Source: Candidatus Nanohaloarchaea archaeon (GTDB taxonomy: Archaea; Nanohalarchaeota; Nanosalinia; Nanosalinales; Nanosalinaceae). Taken from it: DNA of 30,475 nucleotides. The stretch lies in contig JBDGSJ010000007.1 of NCBI GenBank assembly GCA_042217585.1, positions 1 to 30,475 on the forward strand, in the 5' to 3' direction. The notes beneath the pieces were generated by a model. It had not been told where the DNA came from, ran no database searches, and saw only the letters and a list, made by a program, of their open reading frames with translations. Below are positions 15,478-25,302 of the stretch, one piece after another (position 1 is the stretch's first letter; the number at the start of each line of letters is the position of its first letter). The position numbers were made by a program, and so were the translations under genes.

Positions 15478-16713
15478 TCAGTCTTCTATGCTGACCGCCG
15501 GGCCTATATAGCTATCAAGTTTATCCTCCAGCTCCTCTATCCTTTTCTCTTTCTTCTCCCTGAGGTCCTCAAGCTGTTCCTTCTTCTCCTCGATCTTCCT
15601 CCTCCGGTCCTCAAGCTCTTGCTGGACCTTATCCTTTTCCTTCTCAAGTTCCTCCAGCTCATCCTGGACTTCAAGCTCCTCAAGTACCTCCCGGGCCTCC
15701 TCAATCCTGTCCCGGTACTCCTGGATCTCCTCGGTCCTTGAATCCAGGTTTGAGAGGGAGTCTGCGGCCTCACGGAACTTCTTGAGCTGTCTATCGTCTA
15801 TCAGTTCCTTCTCCTCCAGGAAGTCCACCGCGCTGTCGAGCGTAGATTCCAGGTCTCCCTGTATGCTCTCGAACCTTTCATCCTTTATCCTGCGGAGTTT
15901 CTGGACCTCGCCGTCGAACTCGCCGTCCCCTTCATCTATCTCGTAGAGCATCTTCTTCAGACCGCGCTCCATCTTCGACTTCTCCAGAGATATATCCCGG
16001 AGGCGGTCCTCCTTCTTCTCCTCAAGGTATTCGAGCTCTTCCTCGAGCTCTTCCTTTCTCTCCCATTTTTCACTCTCCTTCAGGTCCTCTATACTCTCTC
16101 TGACCTTTTCGAGCTCTTCCTCAAGTTTTTCCGTGTCTTCGTCCTCTATATCCTGTTTTAAGTCCTCGATCTCATCCTCTATATCGGTGATGGTCTTCTG
16201 TATCCTCTCTATCTCCTTCCTCTGACGGATCGCGGAGTACTCCGATTCCATGAAGTCATCGAGCCGGTCTGCGTGCTCCATGATCTCATCTATCGTACCC
16301 GAAAGAGTCCCTGAACTTTTCTGTATCCTCTTCATCACGGCGCCCTGCTTCCTGGTCACATCGTTGAAGTCCTCGACGAAGTCACGGAGTTCCTCCCTCT
16401 GGTCCTCAAGTTTCTCGGACGGTTCGAACTTCTCCAGCATGTTCTTCCTCTTCCTGTAGAAGTCCCTGGCGACATCCTCTACCAGGTCTATGTCGTCCAC
16501 GTCCTCGTACTCCCGGACCTCCTCCAGGTCCTCCTCCAGCCTGTCCATCAGGTCATCGGTCTTCCCGGAGAGTTCCTCTGCCCTCCGGCGTGCACGCCTG
16601 AGTTCCTTCTCCCGTTCCTCCCGGAACCTCTCCACGGCTTCCTCCGGTTCGAACTCGATTTCGCCTGAATCTCCGCTAGAGAAGAGGTTCTGGATGCGTT
16701 CCTTCAGTCCCAT
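15478..16713 (-). CDS. Long coiled-coil protein
   Basis: E/K/L-rich heptads throughout, no Walker motifs; start ATG 16713 or GTG 16734. Confidence 0.85.
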   Translation of the reverse strand: MGLKERIQNLFSSGDSGEIEFEPEEAVERFREEREKELRRARRRAEELSGKTDDLMDRLEEDLEEVREYEDVDDIDLVEDVARDFYRKRKNMLEKFEPSEKLEDQREELRDFVEDFNDVTRKQGAVMKRIQKSSGTLSGTIDEIMEHADRLDDFMESEYSAIRQRKEIERIQKTITDIEDEIEDLKQDIEDEDTEKLEEELEKVRESIEDLKESEKWERKEELEEELEYLEEKKEDRLRDISLEKSKMERGLKKMLYEIDEGDGEFDGEVQKLRRIKDERFESIQGDLESTLDSAVDFLEEKELIDDRQLKKFREAADSLSNLDSRTEEIQEYRDRIEEAREVLEELEVQDELEELEKEKDKVQQELEDRRRKIEEKKEQLEDLREKKEKRIEELEDKLDSYIGPAVSIED

Positions 16714-16752
16714 GTCAGGATTATCTGGTCCCACGGATAAAATTCTGTCGGG

Positions 16753-17430
16753 TTAACTGAAGTCGGAGAGCCGGAACTTCTCGTGGCGTACCTCCCTGAG
16801 TTCCATCCCCCTGACGTCCCACTTGATCCTGAGCAACATGTGCGGTCTCTTTCTCGCCGCCAGTATGCTCTGCGAACCGTATCTCGCGGACCCGGCTACA
16901 GTGACGTTGTAGGCTCTGCGGTCCCTGAACACTGTTTTCCTGGCCTTCAGGTCCAGTGTGAAGAGGTTTCCGCCGATCTCCGATCTTCCGTCATTCAGGG
17001 CTTCCTGGACATTTCCCAGCTCTGCCTGTAGGAACGGTATGTAGAGCGGCATTATGTCCCGTCCGCTCAGGCCCCGGGAGTAGCTGTACTTTCCGTTCCT
17101 GAATTCGCTGGCGGTCATAGGGGATGAGGCCTCGAGGACCAGGGAACTTCTGTTTATCCTGAACTTCCTGAACCTGAAGGAGTCGCCGTCCGAGGATCGG
17201 GGACTGACGATAACACCTTTCCAGTATCTCGGCGTCTTCTGCTGGAAGTAGACCCTGTAGGTCGCTTCGCTGCTCCCGGTCGTCTCGTAAACGAAGACCT
17301 TCCCCGGCGAAGCGGTCATGTCTGGTGTGTTCTTAAGGAGAGAAGCCCCTGAGAACAGCGAGATCATGAGAAAGACTGTCACAAGTCCCTTTGCCTGTCG
17401 CCTGCTCAGCGGAAGGTCCTCGAAATCCAT
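16753..17430 (-). CDS. Membrane-anchored, unusually basic hypothetical protein
   Basis: N-terminal TM followed by an Arg/Lys-rich, beta-rich domain; TTATTAAA upstream. Confidence 0.7.
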   Translation of the reverse strand: MDFEDLPLSRRQAKGLVTVFLMISLFSGASLLKNTPDMTASPGKVFVYETTGSSEATYRVYFQQKTPRYWKGVIVSPRSSDGDSFRFRKFRINRSSLVLEASSPMTASEFRNGKYSYSRGLSGRDIMPLYIPFLQAELGNVQEALNDGRSEIGGNLFTLDLKARKTVFRDRRAYNVTVAGSARYGSQSILAARKRPHMLLRIKWDVRGMELREVRHEKFRLSDFS

Positions 17431-18350: not shown

Positions 18351-18512
18351 TCAAACGCTGGAAGGCCGAGAGGTCCATCGCTTGAAATCCTGGAAACCAT
18401 AGAGACCGGTTGAGGACCGAATAATGGCTTTTCAAACGTTAAACCTGTAAAATTCAGGCGAAAATAAAGTCGCGAGGGATTCAAGATAGGACTGTACGAC
18501 AAAGCGAAGGAG

Positions 18513-19094
18513 GTGGATGACTATCTTTCGGAGTCAGAAAAGTTCTACAGCCTGAAGAAGTTCCTGGACAGGTTACTGCCTCTTGTGATTATCGTCCTGA
18601 TGGGGGTCCTGTACCTGGAGTTCTTCGTCCATCTCACACATCACCAGCACAAGCTGGTCCTGATGATTGAGAGGGGGATACTCGGATACTTTCTGCTGGA
18701 GCTTCTCGTGGACCTGGGCGTTTACAGGAACAACAGGAAGTTCCTGAGGCACAGGCGGATGGACATAATGCTGGTTTTGCCGTTCTTTACGGTGTTCCGC
18801 GGGGTCACCAGGGCGCTGAGAGGTTTGAAGATGCTCAAGCCGTTCAAGCCGACTAAGTCAGTCAAGGGGACCAAGGCGGTGAAGAGCGTCAAGGCCAGCA
18901 AGGTCGCCAGAGCCGCCAGGTCGACCCGGGCTCTGAGAAGGATAGAAGAGGGTTTCAGGGCCGTGGCCAGGTGGCCTCCCGACTTCCAGCACACGACGAA
19001 GGCCCTCAAGAAGTCCAGGGAGATAATCCGGGAGTTCGACATGGGTTTCGACAGGCTGGTCAGCAGGGCCCGGAGACTGGTCCGCGCCGAGTGA
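18513..19094 (+). CDS. Ion-transport voltage-sensor-like (S1-S4) protein without pore domain
   Basis: S2 YFLLELLVD, S3 DIMLVLPF, S4 RALRGLKMLK...; no S5-P-S6 or GYG filter. The frame stays open upstream to 18468. Confidence 0.75.
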   Translation: MDDYLSESEKFYSLKKFLDRLLPLVIIVLMGVLYLEFFVHLTHHQHKLVLMIERGILGYFLLELLVDLGVYRNNRKFLRHRRMDIMLVLPFFTVFRGVTRALRGLKMLKPFKPTKSVKGTKAVKSVKASKVARAARSTRALRRIEEGFRAVARWPPDFQHTTKALKKSREIIREFDMGFDRLVSRARRLVRAE

Positions 19095-19511
19095 TCAGCT
19101 CCCAAGATCGCTGTGGAGTTCGTTCAGGTCCTCTATCAGATCTCTGGCGGCCTCCCTCCTCTCACCTGACTGTTCCCTGAACTCGGAGATGACCTCCTCC
19201 CCGTAACCGGAGTCTATCCGGGAGTAGAGTTCGATTATGTCGTCGAGTATCCCAGAGTCCTCCCCCTTTACGAGGTAGTTCACGCCGTCCGGTCCTGTTT
19301 TCAGGACGACCTCCAGTGATTCTGACCGGGCAATGAACTCCCTGCCTGCTTCATCTATCCTATCAAGGAATTTCGGTGGGCTCAGGACTTCGGGACCGTC
19401 TTTTTCCTCATCGATCTTCCGGACCATCCAGTCTTGCCCTTCCCTTATCTCCGCGTAGTCCTTCAGGGCCATCTTCATGATTTCCGGGTCCTCCGGTCCT
19501 CCCTCAGCCAT
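19095..19511 (-). CDS. Acidic hypothetical protein
   Basis: 138-aa ATG ORF overlapping the sdpI-like stop. Confidence 0.7.
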   Translation of the reverse strand: MAEGGPEDPEIMKMALKDYAEIREGQDWMVRKIDEEKDGPEVLSPPKFLDRIDEAGREFIARSESLEVVLKTGPDGVNYLVKGEDSGILDDIIELYSRIDSGYGEEVISEFREQSGERREAARDLIEDLNELHSDLGS

Positions 19512-20142
19512 CCTGGCTCTCCTCCCTGTAGAGCAGGTAGGAGTATATGGTTGAGCCGACGGCTACCAGTACGGCCGGACCTCCGTAGATCAGCGCCCCC
19601 TTCTCCGGGAACAGGAAACCCAGTAGGGATAGCAGTCCGGCGGCCTTCAGTACAGGACCGAACTTTCCGTGGACCCTGTCCCATACCTCGTCGCTACTGA
19701 GTGTCCAAGGGTTCCTTATTCCTATGAACCAGTTCCTCTCCGATCTCTGTATCAGTTCTCCCGTTACGTAATACGTCGAGAAGATTATCGGCACCAGCAT
19801 ATAGGATATTCCATACCTGAATCCGATGTTCCAGAGGACGATCATCACCTGTGCGTACGCCAGCACCGAGAGTATGAGGACCTTCAACAGTTCGTAAACC
19901 TCCCTGAAATCCTCGTAGTTATCTCCCAGGGGATCTATCTCCGGCAGGTACCTGAAAAGCAAGTAGATCAGGACCGCCAGTCCCGGTATCAGCGTCAGGC
20001 CCGGGACCACTCCCATGTATGAGTCCGGCGACCCGCTGGTGAAGTGGACCGCCACCCTGCCCGTGATTTTCGTCAGGCCGTAAACAGTGGCCAGCGTCAT
20101 AACACTGAAGATGCCGGCCGATGCGTACTCGTACCTGTCCAT
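19504..20142 (-). CDS. SdpI/YfhL family membrane protein (DUF1648 N-terminus)
   Basis: VAVHF...PDSY, IDPLGDNY, RNWFIGIRNPWTLSSDEVWDRVH. Confidence 0.93.
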   Translation of the reverse strand: MDRYEYASAGIFSVMTLATVYGLTKITGRVAVHFTSGSPDSYMGVVPGLTLIPGLAVLIYLLFRYLPEIDPLGDNYEDFREVYELLKVLILSVLAYAQVMIVLWNIGFRYGISYMLVPIIFSTYYVTGELIQRSERNWFIGIRNPWTLSSDEVWDRVHGKFGPVLKAAGLLSLLGFLFPEKGALIYGGPAVLVAVGSTIYSYLLYREESQDG

Positions 20143-21875: not shown

Positions 21876-23045
21876 TCAGAGAGGGATCCTGCCCCGGAAG
21901 ATGTACAGGAGGGCGACGAGGCCTACGAGAACCCCTGCCGCGGGGATAAGGGGAGGTCCTCCGGCGTTACCTCCCTGCCGCACCCTCAGGTCCACGACTT
22001 TCTGCTCCACGAATACTTCTCCATCCCTGTTTCCGGTTATCTCGAAGTCCATCAGGTACTCCTTCACTGAAGCACCGGGCTCGACAGAGGGATTGAAGAC
22101 CACGGTGCCCGTCGCTCCCGGTTTCAGGGTGCCTATGAACCTGGCGGCGGATGAAAAGCTGAAGGGAAGGTCCGAGTTCTCCAGGACCCTCACCCTGGTC
22201 GATTCAGACCTCTCCGAACCCGTGTTCCTTATCTTCATCCTTATCACTCCCTCGGACCCGGTCTGAAGGTCTGCTGTCACGTTCACCACGCTGAACTGAG
22301 GTTTCCCGTCGACCTTTAGCTGGAAATCCTCGCTGATCTCTCCCTCCGTGTCTGAGTGGTTGGCGGTTACTCTGAACGTTTTCATACCTGCCGAAACGTT
22401 CTCACTTATGTCAAAGCTGAACGAAACCGGCTTTACCTGGCCCGGAGCCAGGTTCCCGAGGGACTGGCGTGTCGCAAAGGAGCTCTGACTGGTGAAGCCT
22501 TCCGGGGGCTCCATCCTGACGATGACGTTCTCGGCTGTTTCATCGCCGTTGTTCACTATCTCTACCGTCAGCCGGTTCTCTTCCGAGCCCGGCATCAGGG
22601 AGGATGGGCTGGTCCTCAGGTTGGCGACACTGAGGTCCACTTTCTGGTTCGCGATATCGATGGTGAGGTGCTCTTGCCGGAAGTCGTCGCCCTTGCCGAT
22701 CCGGTAGAGGAACTTCGCCTCCCCCTCAGGCGCGTTCTCCGCCACGAGGACCTCAGGTGAGAGCTGGAACCGGTCCGCCGGGTGGATCGTCCCTAGTTCG
22801 AACCTCGTCTTCTGGTCCGGCTTTATCTGGAACGGGTAGCTTCCGACCAGCTCCACGGTCACGTTTTCAAACTCCTGGTCTCCCATGTGCTTCAGCTCGA
22901 TGAATATCTCTGCTTCCTCACCCGCCTGTACCGGAAAGGGGTCGGTCTGTGAGAATACCTTGAACTCGTTGGCCGGGTGTGCGGCCGTAGCGAATGCTGT
23001 AAGTGCGATAAATGCGGTCAAAAATGCTGTGAGTTTGTGTTTCAT
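21876..23045 (-). CDS. COG1361 S-layer-domain family protein
   Basis: Signal peptide, QTDPFPVQAGE, repeated Ig-like units (NNGDETAENV, LGNLAPG, IGTLKPG), C-terminal TM anchor. Confidence 0.88.
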   Translation of the reverse strand: MKHKLTAFLTAFIALTAFATAAHPANEFKVFSQTDPFPVQAGEEAEIFIELKHMGDQEFENVTVELVGSYPFQIKPDQKTRFELGTIHPADRFQLSPEVLVAENAPEGEAKFLYRIGKGDDFRQEHLTIDIANQKVDLSVANLRTSPSSLMPGSEENRLTVEIVNNGDETAENVIVRMEPPEGFTSQSSFATRQSLGNLAPGQVKPVSFSFDISENVSAGMKTFRVTANHSDTEGEISEDFQLKVDGKPQFSVVNVTADLQTGSEGVIRMKIRNTGSERSESTRVRVLENSDLPFSFSSAARFIGTLKPGATGTVVFNPSVEPGASVKEYLMDFEITGNRDGEVFVEQKVVDLRVRQGGNAGGPPLIPAAGVLVGLVALLYIFRGRIPL

Positions 23046-24190
23046 ACTGTTTTCACCTCTAGTATCTTTTTCACGGCCGGAGTTACGTACCTGTCGTGGA
23101 TTATCAGGGTCGAGGGTATAACGGTGAAAGCGGCGACGTATGCGAGGGAGGTCGTCAGGGAAAGCATGATGCCGAGCGATGAGAGGAAAGTTATCCTTCC
23201 CAGGCTCAGCGTCGAGAAGCCCATGACTGCTGCGATAACTCCCAGCGTCATCGGCCGCGCCACCCCCTTTATCGTGGTCGAGAGCGCCTCCTCCATGCCG
23301 AGGTCCCGGCGCTCCTCACGGTAACGGGACACCGGCTGTATCCCGAAGTCTATAGCTATCCCCACTCCGATAGATATGGCGCCCGATGTCGCGGGGCTCA
23401 GGTTGAAGCCGAGCAGTCCGAATGTCCCGAAACCTGCCGCGATGCCGAAGACGAGTGTCTGGAGCGACGCAAAACCGAAGAAGAAGGACCTGAAAAGCCC
23501 TATGACTATCACGAGGACCAGGCTGAAGGCGACGATGCTGGTCACCCTGCTGGTCTGCTGGGCCTGCTCCTGGAACGCCTGGTCGATGAAAGGCTGACCT
23601 GTCAGGGAGTACTCTATACCTGCCGGAGAAGCCTGAGACTCTATCACATATCTTATCCGGTCCGCAAGCCTGTTCTCTTCCCGGGCGCTCAGTCCCCCCG
23701 CCTGTACCTCTATCCTCGCCGCAGAGTAATCCCTGGATATATACCTGCTCCACCTGCTCTCTCCCAGGCGGTCCATGGCCCTCTTCACTCCCTTCTTTGC
23801 GGGCGGTATCTCCCTGAACAGGTCCGCGGGGGAGTCCACCGAATCCACTCCTCTCAGGCCTGAGAGGTCCGCATCGATCGTCCTCATGTACCGGAGGGCT
23901 CGCGGAGACCTCATATCCCTTATCTCCGTGCTGTCGGGATAGTCCGGGTCCGTCACAAGCAGTATGGTGTATGTCGTCCCTCCTGTGGAACTGAACTCCT
24001 TCTCCAGCACGTCGAAAGCCTGTATCGATTCAAACGTTTCTGGCAGGAAGTCGGAGGTGCTCTGCTCCACGGTCTGGACCTTTGTCGCTCCTGATGCCAG
24101 GACCAGAGTCAGGAGAAGCGCGACCCCGAAGACCAGCAGGGGTCTCTCCACCACTACCTCCGAGTACTTCTCCACGAACCTATCTATCAT
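23042..24190 (-). CDS. MMPL/RND family transporter half-unit
   Basis: TM1 + extracytoplasmic loop + LTGQP + five TMs, GIAIDFG; ATG 24190 after SD GGAGGTGG. Confidence 0.9.
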   Translation of the reverse strand: MIDRFVEKYSEVVVERPLLVFGVALLLTLVLASGATKVQTVEQSTSDFLPETFESIQAFDVLEKEFSSTGGTTYTILLVTDPDYPDSTEIRDMRSPRALRYMRTIDADLSGLRGVDSVDSPADLFREIPPAKKGVKRAMDRLGESRWSRYISRDYSAARIEVQAGGLSAREENRLADRIRYVIESQASPAGIEYSLTGQPFIDQAFQEQAQQTSRVTSIVAFSLVLVIVIGLFRSFFFGFASLQTLVFGIAAGFGTFGLLGFNLSPATSGAISIGVGIAIDFGIQPVSRYREERRDLGMEEALSTTIKGVARPMTLGVIAAVMGFSTLSLGRITFLSSLGIMLSLTTSLAYVAAFTVIPSTLIIHDRYVTPAVKKILEVKTV

Positions 24191-25271
24191 CTTTCCACCT
24201 CCTGTACTCGATGATAAGTGAAGGAGTGACCACAAGAGCGGAGCTGACCGTCAGGAACTCTCCCAGAGCCAGGGTCACTCCCAGGTCCCGGATGAAAGTG
24301 AAGGATGCCAGCAGTAACGCGAGGAAACCGACGCCATCTGTCATCGCGGACCCCACGATAGCCTTTCCGGTGTTCGGGACCGCGGTCCTGAGTGCCGCCT
24401 CCGGACTCTTCTCCTCCATCTCCTCTATTATCCTCTCGGTTATGAAGGACCCGTACTCGACTCCCAGTCCCAGTATCATCGAACCGAGTGATATCGTCGC
24501 GAACGACAGCGGTATGCCGAAGTGTCCCATGAAGCCGAGAGTCCATATCAATCCCATGAAGAGCGGGACAAAGGTTATCGGTCCGTAAACTGCTCCGCGG
24601 GAAAATATCAGCAGGATCAGTATGAGCGCCGAGGCCGCAGCTATTGTCGTGTAAGAGTCGCTGACAAGAACGCTGGAGATCGTGTTACGGACCACCGGCA
24701 ACCCTGTAAGGGTCAGCTTCACGCCGGGAGGCTTCGGCACCTGCTCGATGTTCTCCTCTATCATCGTTGTGGCCTGGGCGATGTTCTCCTCTGTCATCTC
24801 TCCCTTCAGGCGGACGAAAACGGTCGTCGCGGTGTAGTCCCGGTTCAGGAAAGAACCTCTTGAACTTCTGAGTACTTTCTTGACCTCTCTCTTCGAATCC
24901 GGATTCTCCCTGAAAAGCGAGCCCATGGAGTTCACCGAGGACACCATCGGTTCACGGTCCAGCTCCCTCTCCAGTGAGTTCAGCATCTCCACCACACGAG
25001 GGTCCCTCATATCCGTTACATAGCTCTCCTCCCTGCGGTCCTCAGTCGTCTGGACCAGCACTATTATCGAGTTCGTGTTCCCGAACTTCGCCTCGACCCT
25101 CTCTTTCGTCATTATAGGGGGTAGGTCGTCCGGGAGGCTGGCCTGGAAATCCGTCTGGAGCTGTATATCAGGTATACCGGAACCCAGGACGACGGTCAGG
25201 ACCAGGGATGCCAGAAGCACCGTGCGCGTGTTACCTAGCTGGAACTCCGCCAGTGCCTCAAGTGGGTTCAC
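24180..25271 (-). CDS. MMPL/RND family transporter half-unit
   Basis: Same topology, LTGLP, GLGVEYG, GFLALL. GTG 25271 lies about 24 nt after TTTAAA (TTG 25286 is an alternative start). Confidence 0.9.
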   Translation of the reverse strand: MNPLEALAEFQLGNTRTVLLASLVLTVVLGSGIPDIQLQTDFQASLPDDLPPIMTKERVEAKFGNTNSIIVLVQTTEDRREESYVTDMRDPRVVEMLNSLERELDREPMVSSVNSMGSLFRENPDSKREVKKVLRSSRGSFLNRDYTATTVFVRLKGEMTEENIAQATTMIEENIEQVPKPPGVKLTLTGLPVVRNTISSVLVSDSYTTIAAASALILILLIFSRGAVYGPITFVPLFMGLIWTLGFMGHFGIPLSFATISLGSMILGLGVEYGSFITERIIEEMEEKSPEAALRTAVPNTGKAIVGSAMTDGVGFLALLLASFTFIRDLGVTLALGEFLTVSSALVVTPSLIIEYRRWKDDR

Positions 25272-25302
25272 TGGTAGGATACTCAATCCCCAGCTTTAAA
25301 TC

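Follow-up and report, generated by a model that had tools for sequence, protein, structure and literature searches.

A pore-less voltage-sensor-domain protein with a 15-rung charge ladder in a nanohaloarchaeon, and its stand-alone relatives in tiny symbiotic archaea

What might a voltage sensor do that has no pore to open and carries a basic residue at 15 successive third positions? The question is raised by an ORF of a Candidatus Nanohaloarchaea archaeon (genome G000; 0.98 Mb, 90% complete), located in a stretch of 30,475 nucleotides of contig JBDGSJ010000007.1, hereafter the window. The initial annotation, made from the sequence alone, had proposed a stand-alone voltage-sensor-domain protein that might sense voltage or pH, conduct protons or bind polyanions. 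The features of the gene are the following.

18486..18488, plus strand: in-frame ATA where the start Met of the family sits, possibly a lost start codon
18513..19094, plus strand: GTG-started ORF (193 aa) for the pore-less voltage-sensor-domain protein, the best-scoring frame here in the codon model
18573..18626, plus strand: S1 helix, residues 21-38, with E36 at its outer end and no acidic residue in mid-S1
18630..18650, plus strand: His-rich S1-S2 loop H40-H46, enriched in His, not conserved in the family
18651..18722, plus strand: S2 helix with E53, F60 (the charge-transfer-centre aromatic) and E63; helix 43-70 in the model
18756..18800, plus strand: S3 and the conserved R96, with D84, P90 and R82 in place of the family Trp
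18810..18938, plus strand: 15-rung R/K ladder R100-R142; rungs 1-5 putative S4 gating region, rungs 6-15 putative extramembrane extension
18811..18811, plus strand: one-base deletion polymorphism, the base being absent in the contig of run X1 and present in X2 as in the window
18981..19091, plus strand: basic amphipathic C-terminal helix, starting with the subfamily motif QHxxK

The protein is assigned to no family by NCBIfam or PADLOC, and a scan for promoters and terminators remained at chance level. The window also harbours, on the minus strand, an SdpI-family membrane protein (19504-20142) encoded 410 nt downstream of the sensor gene; an SdpI relative is also found 3.4 kb from the sensor gene in locus L054, probably by chance. 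Elsewhere on that strand are genes for a 225-aa protein without Pfam match whose N-terminus bears a hydrophobic segment (16753-17430) and which is among the ten most basic gene products of an acidic proteome, for a 418-aa acidic coiled-coil protein with weak, coiled-coil-type Pfam and PADLOC matches (15478-16734), and for a CARDB-type protein, behind which two membrane genes overlap one another (21876-25286). We take these two membrane genes to be a split RND/MMPL transporter, and the gene opposite them is presumably TetR-like.

Identity of the domain

The Pfam Ion_trans profile (PF00520) matches the query with 26.7 bits (cut-off 25) over positions 7-123 of 241, which represent the sensor half of the profile. 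The query is its sole match in G000, and 96 of the 115 members of the family alignment are matched as well. A profile of these 115 members retrieved Shaker, CavAb, Kv1.3 and the KvAP sensor from the PDB with E-values of 4e-5 to 7e-3; the same search with the query as a single sequence returned nothing relevant. The residues given as sensor-defining in the available parts of PMC13095418 are kept in the family. Position 60 is the S2 Phe in 111 of 114 homologues, position 63 is acidic (D/E) in 99 and position 84 is Asp in 86, Asn in 11 and Glu in 8, with outer acids (D/E) at position 53 in 77 and at position 36 in 73. P90 is invariant (114/114), R/K is found at position 96 in 100 homologues, and position 82, an Arg in the query, is Trp in 110. 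The S4-type pattern starts 16 residues beyond D84 and has 15 rungs. Judged by its sequence, the query is thus a voltage-sensor domain.

The pore had been reported as missing, and it is: the Pfam match is restricted to the sensor half, neither a Pfam pore match nor a hydrophobic segment beyond S4 was detected, and the downstream neighbour (19095-19511, minus strand) is convergent. There is no second domain, enzyme or transporter, in the chain of 193 residues. Among 123 representative homologues collected at E ≤0.001, 122 have at most 270 residues, a few of them being evident fragments, and a selectivity-filter motif is present in one. The homologues are therefore not full channels of which the query would be a truncation, and the stand-alone voltage-sensor-domain protein of the initial annotation is borne out by the sensor-half match and these pore-less homologues.

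Two AlphaFold2 models were computed, one of the full-length protein and another of residues 1-130, for which short-linker relatives were used (pLDDT 80.6 and 80.2; pTM 0.51 and 0.61, respectively). They superpose on S1-S3 of CatSper, Ci-VSP, SLC9C1, Nav1.7 and NavMs with Z-scores of 7.6-8.8, values similar to those of unrelated helical bundles; for NavMs, the rmsd is 2.3 Å over 93 columns. In both models, residues 82 to 107/108 form one continuous helix, so that S4 is not folded back and the ladder is unpacked. The models thus agree with the expected sensor fold for S1-S3, but do not pack S4 against them. Foldseek searches with both models gave no match at E ≤0.001, and the absence of Hv1 and TMEM266 from the matches listed excludes neither. 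A structure search of the ESM Atlas gave nothing informative (best TM-score 0.42), and its feature search retrieved unnamed archaeal clusters.

The charge ladder and the state of this copy

The ladder is where it had been described, with R or K at every third position from R100 to R142. None of 100,000 shuffles of the whole protein, of the ladder segment (43 residues) or of the tail reached 15 rungs, the best having 10, 10 and 11, respectively. The runner-up in the genome has 5 rungs among the 986 genes called by our script, and 7 among 3,316 ORFs of at least 80 aa. With a net charge of +23, the protein ranks second among the products of the 986 genes, whose median is -0.08 per residue, in agreement with the remark that it is strikingly basic for a halophile. 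Exceptional within its genome, a ladder of this length is nevertheless not unique, as 9-17 rungs are present in 20 pore-less homologues of the 123 representatives.

We analysed the composition of 25 ladders picked for having at least 9 rungs. The share of Arg, 0.8 at rung 1, is down to 0-0.1 by rungs 9-10, and the spacers change from large hydrophobic to small residues, their hydropathy going from 3.4 to about 1.3. Among the 562 spacer positions, K/R is out of register at 6, and a single acidic residue occurs among 868. In 23 clade members, some of them near duplicates, taken with no choice of length and with broken ladders kept in, a single frame holds 259 of the 308 K/R, and D/E make up 13 of 1,022 residues. 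In the query, the middle rungs are Lys, Pro residues are found at positions 110 and 113, and the last four rungs are Arg and modelled as helical. Residues 114-144 are amphipathic at three residues per turn only, with a moment of 1.6-1.9 at 120 degrees and 0.3-0.5 at 100 degrees. The basic tail, noted as amphipathic from the start, is indeed so in α-helical geometry, with a moment of 1.4-1.5 at 100 degrees over residues 157-193.

Recent DNA slippage is ruled out as the origin of the ladder: 2 of 21 pairs of identical tripeptides share their DNA, and a tandem-repeat search found none. Since identical tripeptides rarely share codons, the pattern is maintained at the protein level. Close relatives have anything from 3 to 17 rungs. 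In other subfamilies, 3-5 rungs stand behind a long S3-S4 insert, and one of these subfamilies stops directly after S4. The 30-60 residues that separate S3 from a short Arg cluster in other subfamilies count against a fixed assignment of S4 rungs. In the full channels compared here, the ladders have at most 7-9 rungs, with 2 rungs in 106 of 112 filter-bearing rows, mostly from one family. KvLm as a precedent for a long S4 ladder is not borne out by the available part of PMC2151562. On quick trees, the long ladders form two groups. Separate origins of the two clades are not supported, as a single origin was not rejected in a quickly built tree (73 rows, 80 columns; AU p = 0.318); a first tree had left out 12 rows without the motif.

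Whether the window copy is intact is a separate matter. Nine in-frame codons upstream of the GTG align with the N-termini of homologues and begin with the ATA at 18486, where relatives have Met; no difference at this codon is listed in runs X1 and X2. A contig of X1, possibly from the source sample, has a depth of 18.9 and lacks base 18811, which yields a 101-aa product with no ladder. In X2, from another sample of the same study, the contig is in frame across the ladder and differs by one synonymous substitution; the ladder is therefore not an assembly artefact. The contig of X3 covers the last bases only. The sensor gene may be under relaxed selection in the window, a possibility that we regard as appreciable but not as the likelier case, and the same holds for the proposal that this copy is decaying, independently of the function of the family. 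The ATA at the family start position, the W82R replacement and the frameshift allele of X1, none of them noted in the initial annotation, point to decay, as does the patchy occurrence of long-ladder genes among relatives. This reading is doubtful nonetheless, given that the frame is open in the window as in X2, that the codon score is typical of genes, that the usable GTG would cost nine residues only, and that the ladder and the core residues are intact.

Relatives and potential partners

Profile searches indicate that the family of stand-alone sensors is widespread in tiny symbiotic archaea. Its profile, which was built from such stand-alone proteins, matches 32 of 52 genomes of the nanohaloarchaeal phylum and, in the Nanoarchaeota group, 140 of the 301 genomes sampled (one of the tallied genomes being unpublished), mostly in frames shorter than ~250 aa, the counts including kin that are not independent of one another. 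The pore motif is absent from all the best 30 Nanoarchaeota-group loci. A related stand-alone type is present in MAGs labelled Thermotoga, Desulfurococcales, Omnitrophota, Dehalococcoidia and Hydrothermarchaeales, and in 4 of 151 genomes of the class to which Desulfurococcales belong. Word-based homologue searches were less productive, with 1 match for the query and a profile version dominated by one channel family. A similar search for longer forms found none, which counts for little in view of the fusions of about 780 aa. Pattern scans detected no relative of the query in genomes and none of the close alignment in viral contigs.

Some loci have distinctive arrangements. In G200, two tandem stand-alone sensor genes are found (L146:2710-3722), one apparently frameshifted after S3. 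A short sensor subfamily that ends 2-4 residues after S4 shows conserved synteny (L060, L062, L064, L065, L067-L070). Its neighbours, read from sequence, are presumably genes for ribosomal S8e, a GTPase and an RPA-like protein, and a second type of sensor paralogue lies near genes that we take to be EF-1beta-, FEN1- and RIO-kinase-like.

A search for a separate pore gene had been suggested at the outset. No pore gene is linked to the query, and none recurs beside the sensor across the 21 loci compared. The PF07885 pore is found in 3 of the 32 sensor-bearing nanohaloarchaeal genomes (G000, G043 and G047) and is missing from the other 29, closed genomes included. In G000, the sole K-type pore of the genome is an unlinked two-helix pore behind long pentapeptide repeats (L002, G000:C2:12459-15662), with relatives in G043 and G047.

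In a number of larger proteins, related sensors, not recognized there by Pfam, sit at the N-terminus, ahead of an APC amino-acid permease and a methyltransferase-like end (10 genes inspected, Pfam run on 5). The Arg-rich S4 of these fusions is followed, after about 25 residues, by the first permease helix. In APC permeases, the first helix acts as an inner gate. The sensor-APC-SAM-methyltransferase-like fusions of 730-780 aa (L081-L085, L093, L094, L143:3119-5452, L144:4025-6349 and L145:4104-6419) belong to Woesearchaeota/Nanoarchaeota-group genomes and to one MAG labelled Methanosarcinales; they are candidate voltage-regulated transporters. Frames of 760-867 aa number at least 21 among the 150 matches listed, most of them judged to be fusions by length alone, and the fusions resemble a cluster of 83 archaeal proteins (773 aa) in the ESM Atlas. 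A stand-alone sensor adjoins the fusion in three of four multi-copy loci; a full channel is also present in two cases, and APC paralogues lacking the sensor in two. L143 (G191:C5:71500-81000) codes for a RimK-like ligase, an APC-MTase, a sensor-APC-MTase, a stand-alone sensor and another APC-MTase, and the L144 cluster adds MscS and a full 6TM channel. A hydrophobic, roughly four-helix module stands ahead of the sensor in 15 of 16 mid-sized frames. In L147-L161, proteins of 260-345 aa are composed of this unannotated N-terminal module and a pore-less sensor, often with a long Lys-rich tail.

For the long-ladder genes, comparison of gene neighbourhoods revealed no conserved partner. The loci linking sensor and APC belong to other subfamilies, none to that of the window, and no relative of the fusions was found in G000, which has an unlinked APC gene. 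Among the nanohaloarchaeal genomes, APC matches are present in 12 of 32 sensor carriers versus 4 of 20 non-carriers. An obligate pore or APC partner is ruled out on co-occurrence (3/32 and 12/32, respectively).

Possible roles of the ladder

We tentatively favour a non-conducting stand-alone sensor in which the first four to five rungs gate and the others serve outside the membrane as a lever on a partner or on the membrane itself, the lipids of halophiles being anionic. S1-S3 would form the usual gating pore, with F60, E63 and D84 and the outer acids E36 and E53. The first four to five rungs (about R100/R103 to K112) would be the S4 gating charges, and the description of Arg as the preferred gating charge in the available parts of PMC13095418 counts for this assignment of rungs 1-5. 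The remaining ~10 Lys-rich rungs would keep the register beyond the membrane, most probably on the cytoplasmic side, and form a one-faced cationic rod with three residues per turn (3-10 or polyproline-II-like), followed by the amphipathic helix. A negative resting potential would hold S4 inward; when the potential falls, S4 would shift, and the rod and tail would transmit the movement. The target might be a partner in trans, such as a transporter or another membrane protein, or the anionic membrane surface, in the manner of the long S4 of SLC9C1. That S4 runs about 60 Å and couples outside the membrane, according to the sections available of PMC10620092, which counts for a lever. Relatives fused to APC amino-acid permeases also speak for a lever that acts on a partner, as do those with the four-helix module and the stand-alone copies beside the fusion; the change from Arg to Lys and to smaller spacers along the ladder fits the assignment of gating to the first rungs. 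Against the lever, the models leave S4 not folded back, no conserved partner was found, and the APC link is confined to other subfamilies.

The ladder is probably not gating charge throughout. A long-stroke rack, with the whole ladder threading the hydrophobic constriction rung by rung, would move a gating charge of at least 10 and give a very steep response. Register and spacers that look selected along the full ladder, both in the 25 long ladders and in all 23 clade members, would suit such a rack, as would the age of the repeats and the return of helical Arg in the last four rungs. It is nevertheless improbable, as rung numbers differ widely among close relatives, the middle rungs are Lys, which is less suited to crossing (PMC13095418, available parts), with the two Pro residues among them, and outward travel would presumably require depolarized or positive potentials; a one-faced surface helix explains the register equally well. 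Rather unlikely, too, is a protein with no sensing job, in which S1-S3 would anchor a voltage-independent polycation made of ladder and tail for anionic lipids, DNA or polyphosphate. Both models do leave the ladder outside the bundle, a single one of the 986 gene products in this acidic proteome is more basic, and ladders vary widely in length and sequence. However, F60, E63 and D84 are conserved across all subfamilies, and a plain polycation need not exclude off-register K/R. The polyanion-binding extension of the initial annotation stumbles on this last point, since a simple polyanion tail leaves the near-exclusion of off-register K/R unexplained.

Conduction could also be envisaged. That the sensor itself is a voltage-gated proton or cation leak, by an Hv-like or omega-type current, is unlikely. 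It is pore-less like Hv1, 29 of 32 carrier genomes have no K-type pore that we could find, and the outer loop is enriched in His (7.4% across the family, versus 2.1% elsewhere). The HLTHHQH motif pointed out in the initial annotation is indeed present in the query, but 40 of the 114 homologues have no His in that loop, and the lack of conservation leaves a pH role unsupported. The features of Hv1, a selectivity Asp in S1 and RxWRxxR in S4 (PMC10377628, in the parts available), argue against an Hv1-like proton conductor: no D/E is found at mid-S1 positions 26-32 in the query or in any of the 114 homologues, and RxWRxxR is absent from the S4 of the query; of 115 rows, a loose pattern picked out two, one through a Lys ladder and the other through a tail. 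With an unbroken ladder, moreover, the constriction would never be free of a basic residue, and an omega current should be blocked, as we infer from the portions available of PMC13095418. Assembly of the sensor with a separately encoded two-helix pore into a split channel is highly improbable. It could draw on the unlinked pore gene of G000 (pentapeptide repeats and PF07885), on the long-ladder type of all three genomes with both sensor and pore, and on full channels near stand-alone sensors at two Nanoarchaeota-group loci. Yet 29 of 32 carriers have no PF07885 match, that pore was not found with this query in the long-ladder genomes G039, G054 and G065 (71-89% complete), and G043 and G047 belong to one genus.

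Several known systems share features with the query. The sensors of 6TM channels (Shaker, KvAP, CavAb and NavMs; PF00520) are alike in the sequence and fold of S1-S3, the S2 Phe, the S2 and S3 acids and basic residues at every third position. Unlike them, the query has no S5-P-S6 and no modelled S4 hairpin, and it has 15 mostly Lys rungs, compared with 7-9 in the closest full prokaryotic channels compared. Hv1/VSOP has the same sensor-only architecture and a C-terminal helix, but its S1 selectivity Asp and RxWRxxR are missing from the query; in the available parts of PMC10377628 and PMC13095418, Hv is not reported in bacteria or archaea. Ci-VSP is a pore-less sensor whose S1-S3 superpose with Z-scores of 7.6-8.2, but the query has no enzyme domain after S4. 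TMEM266 is alike by description, being sensor-only and apparently non-channel, with an extended S4 and an unknown function (PMC13095418, parts available), but it is found in vertebrates and has a coiled coil and a Zn site. SLC9C1 has a very long S4 that couples outside the membrane, and its S1-S3 superpose with Z-scores of 7.7-8.1 over ~90 residues (rmsd 3.1-3.6). Its fused transporter is paralleled in relatives of the query family, with an APC permease behind an N-terminal sensor where SLC9C1 has an NHE, but not in the query itself, which is unfused. If the lever proposal holds, the query would work most like SLC9C1 or TMEM266.

A literature search that covered the main text of mostly open-access articles listed no paper on the family or on sensor-APC fusions. 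Stand-alone sensors of 130-250 residues that form a common archaeal family run counter to statements in the available parts of two publications, that all prokaryotic voltage sensors carry a pore (a 2023 review, PMC10377628) and that prokaryotic counterparts of sensor-only proteins are unreported (a 2019 paper, PMC6768053). Given its possible decay, the window copy is a poor bench specimen for the presumed function of the family. The family members are candidates for the free sensor module assumed by fusion models of channel evolution, and their natural series of 3-17 rungs makes the travel range of S4 and the charge moved per sensor testable. The sensor-APC fusions would add a second kind to the voltage-regulated transporters, besides SLC9C1, the only sensor-regulated transporter known according to the sections available of PMC10620092. 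In the boldest and quite improbable version, DPANN archaea would possess a toolkit of pore-less sensors controlling secondary transporters, fused to APC permeases or acting in trans, and the long-ladder form would ratchet 9-17 charges through one gating pore, the most charge per chain of any described sensor.
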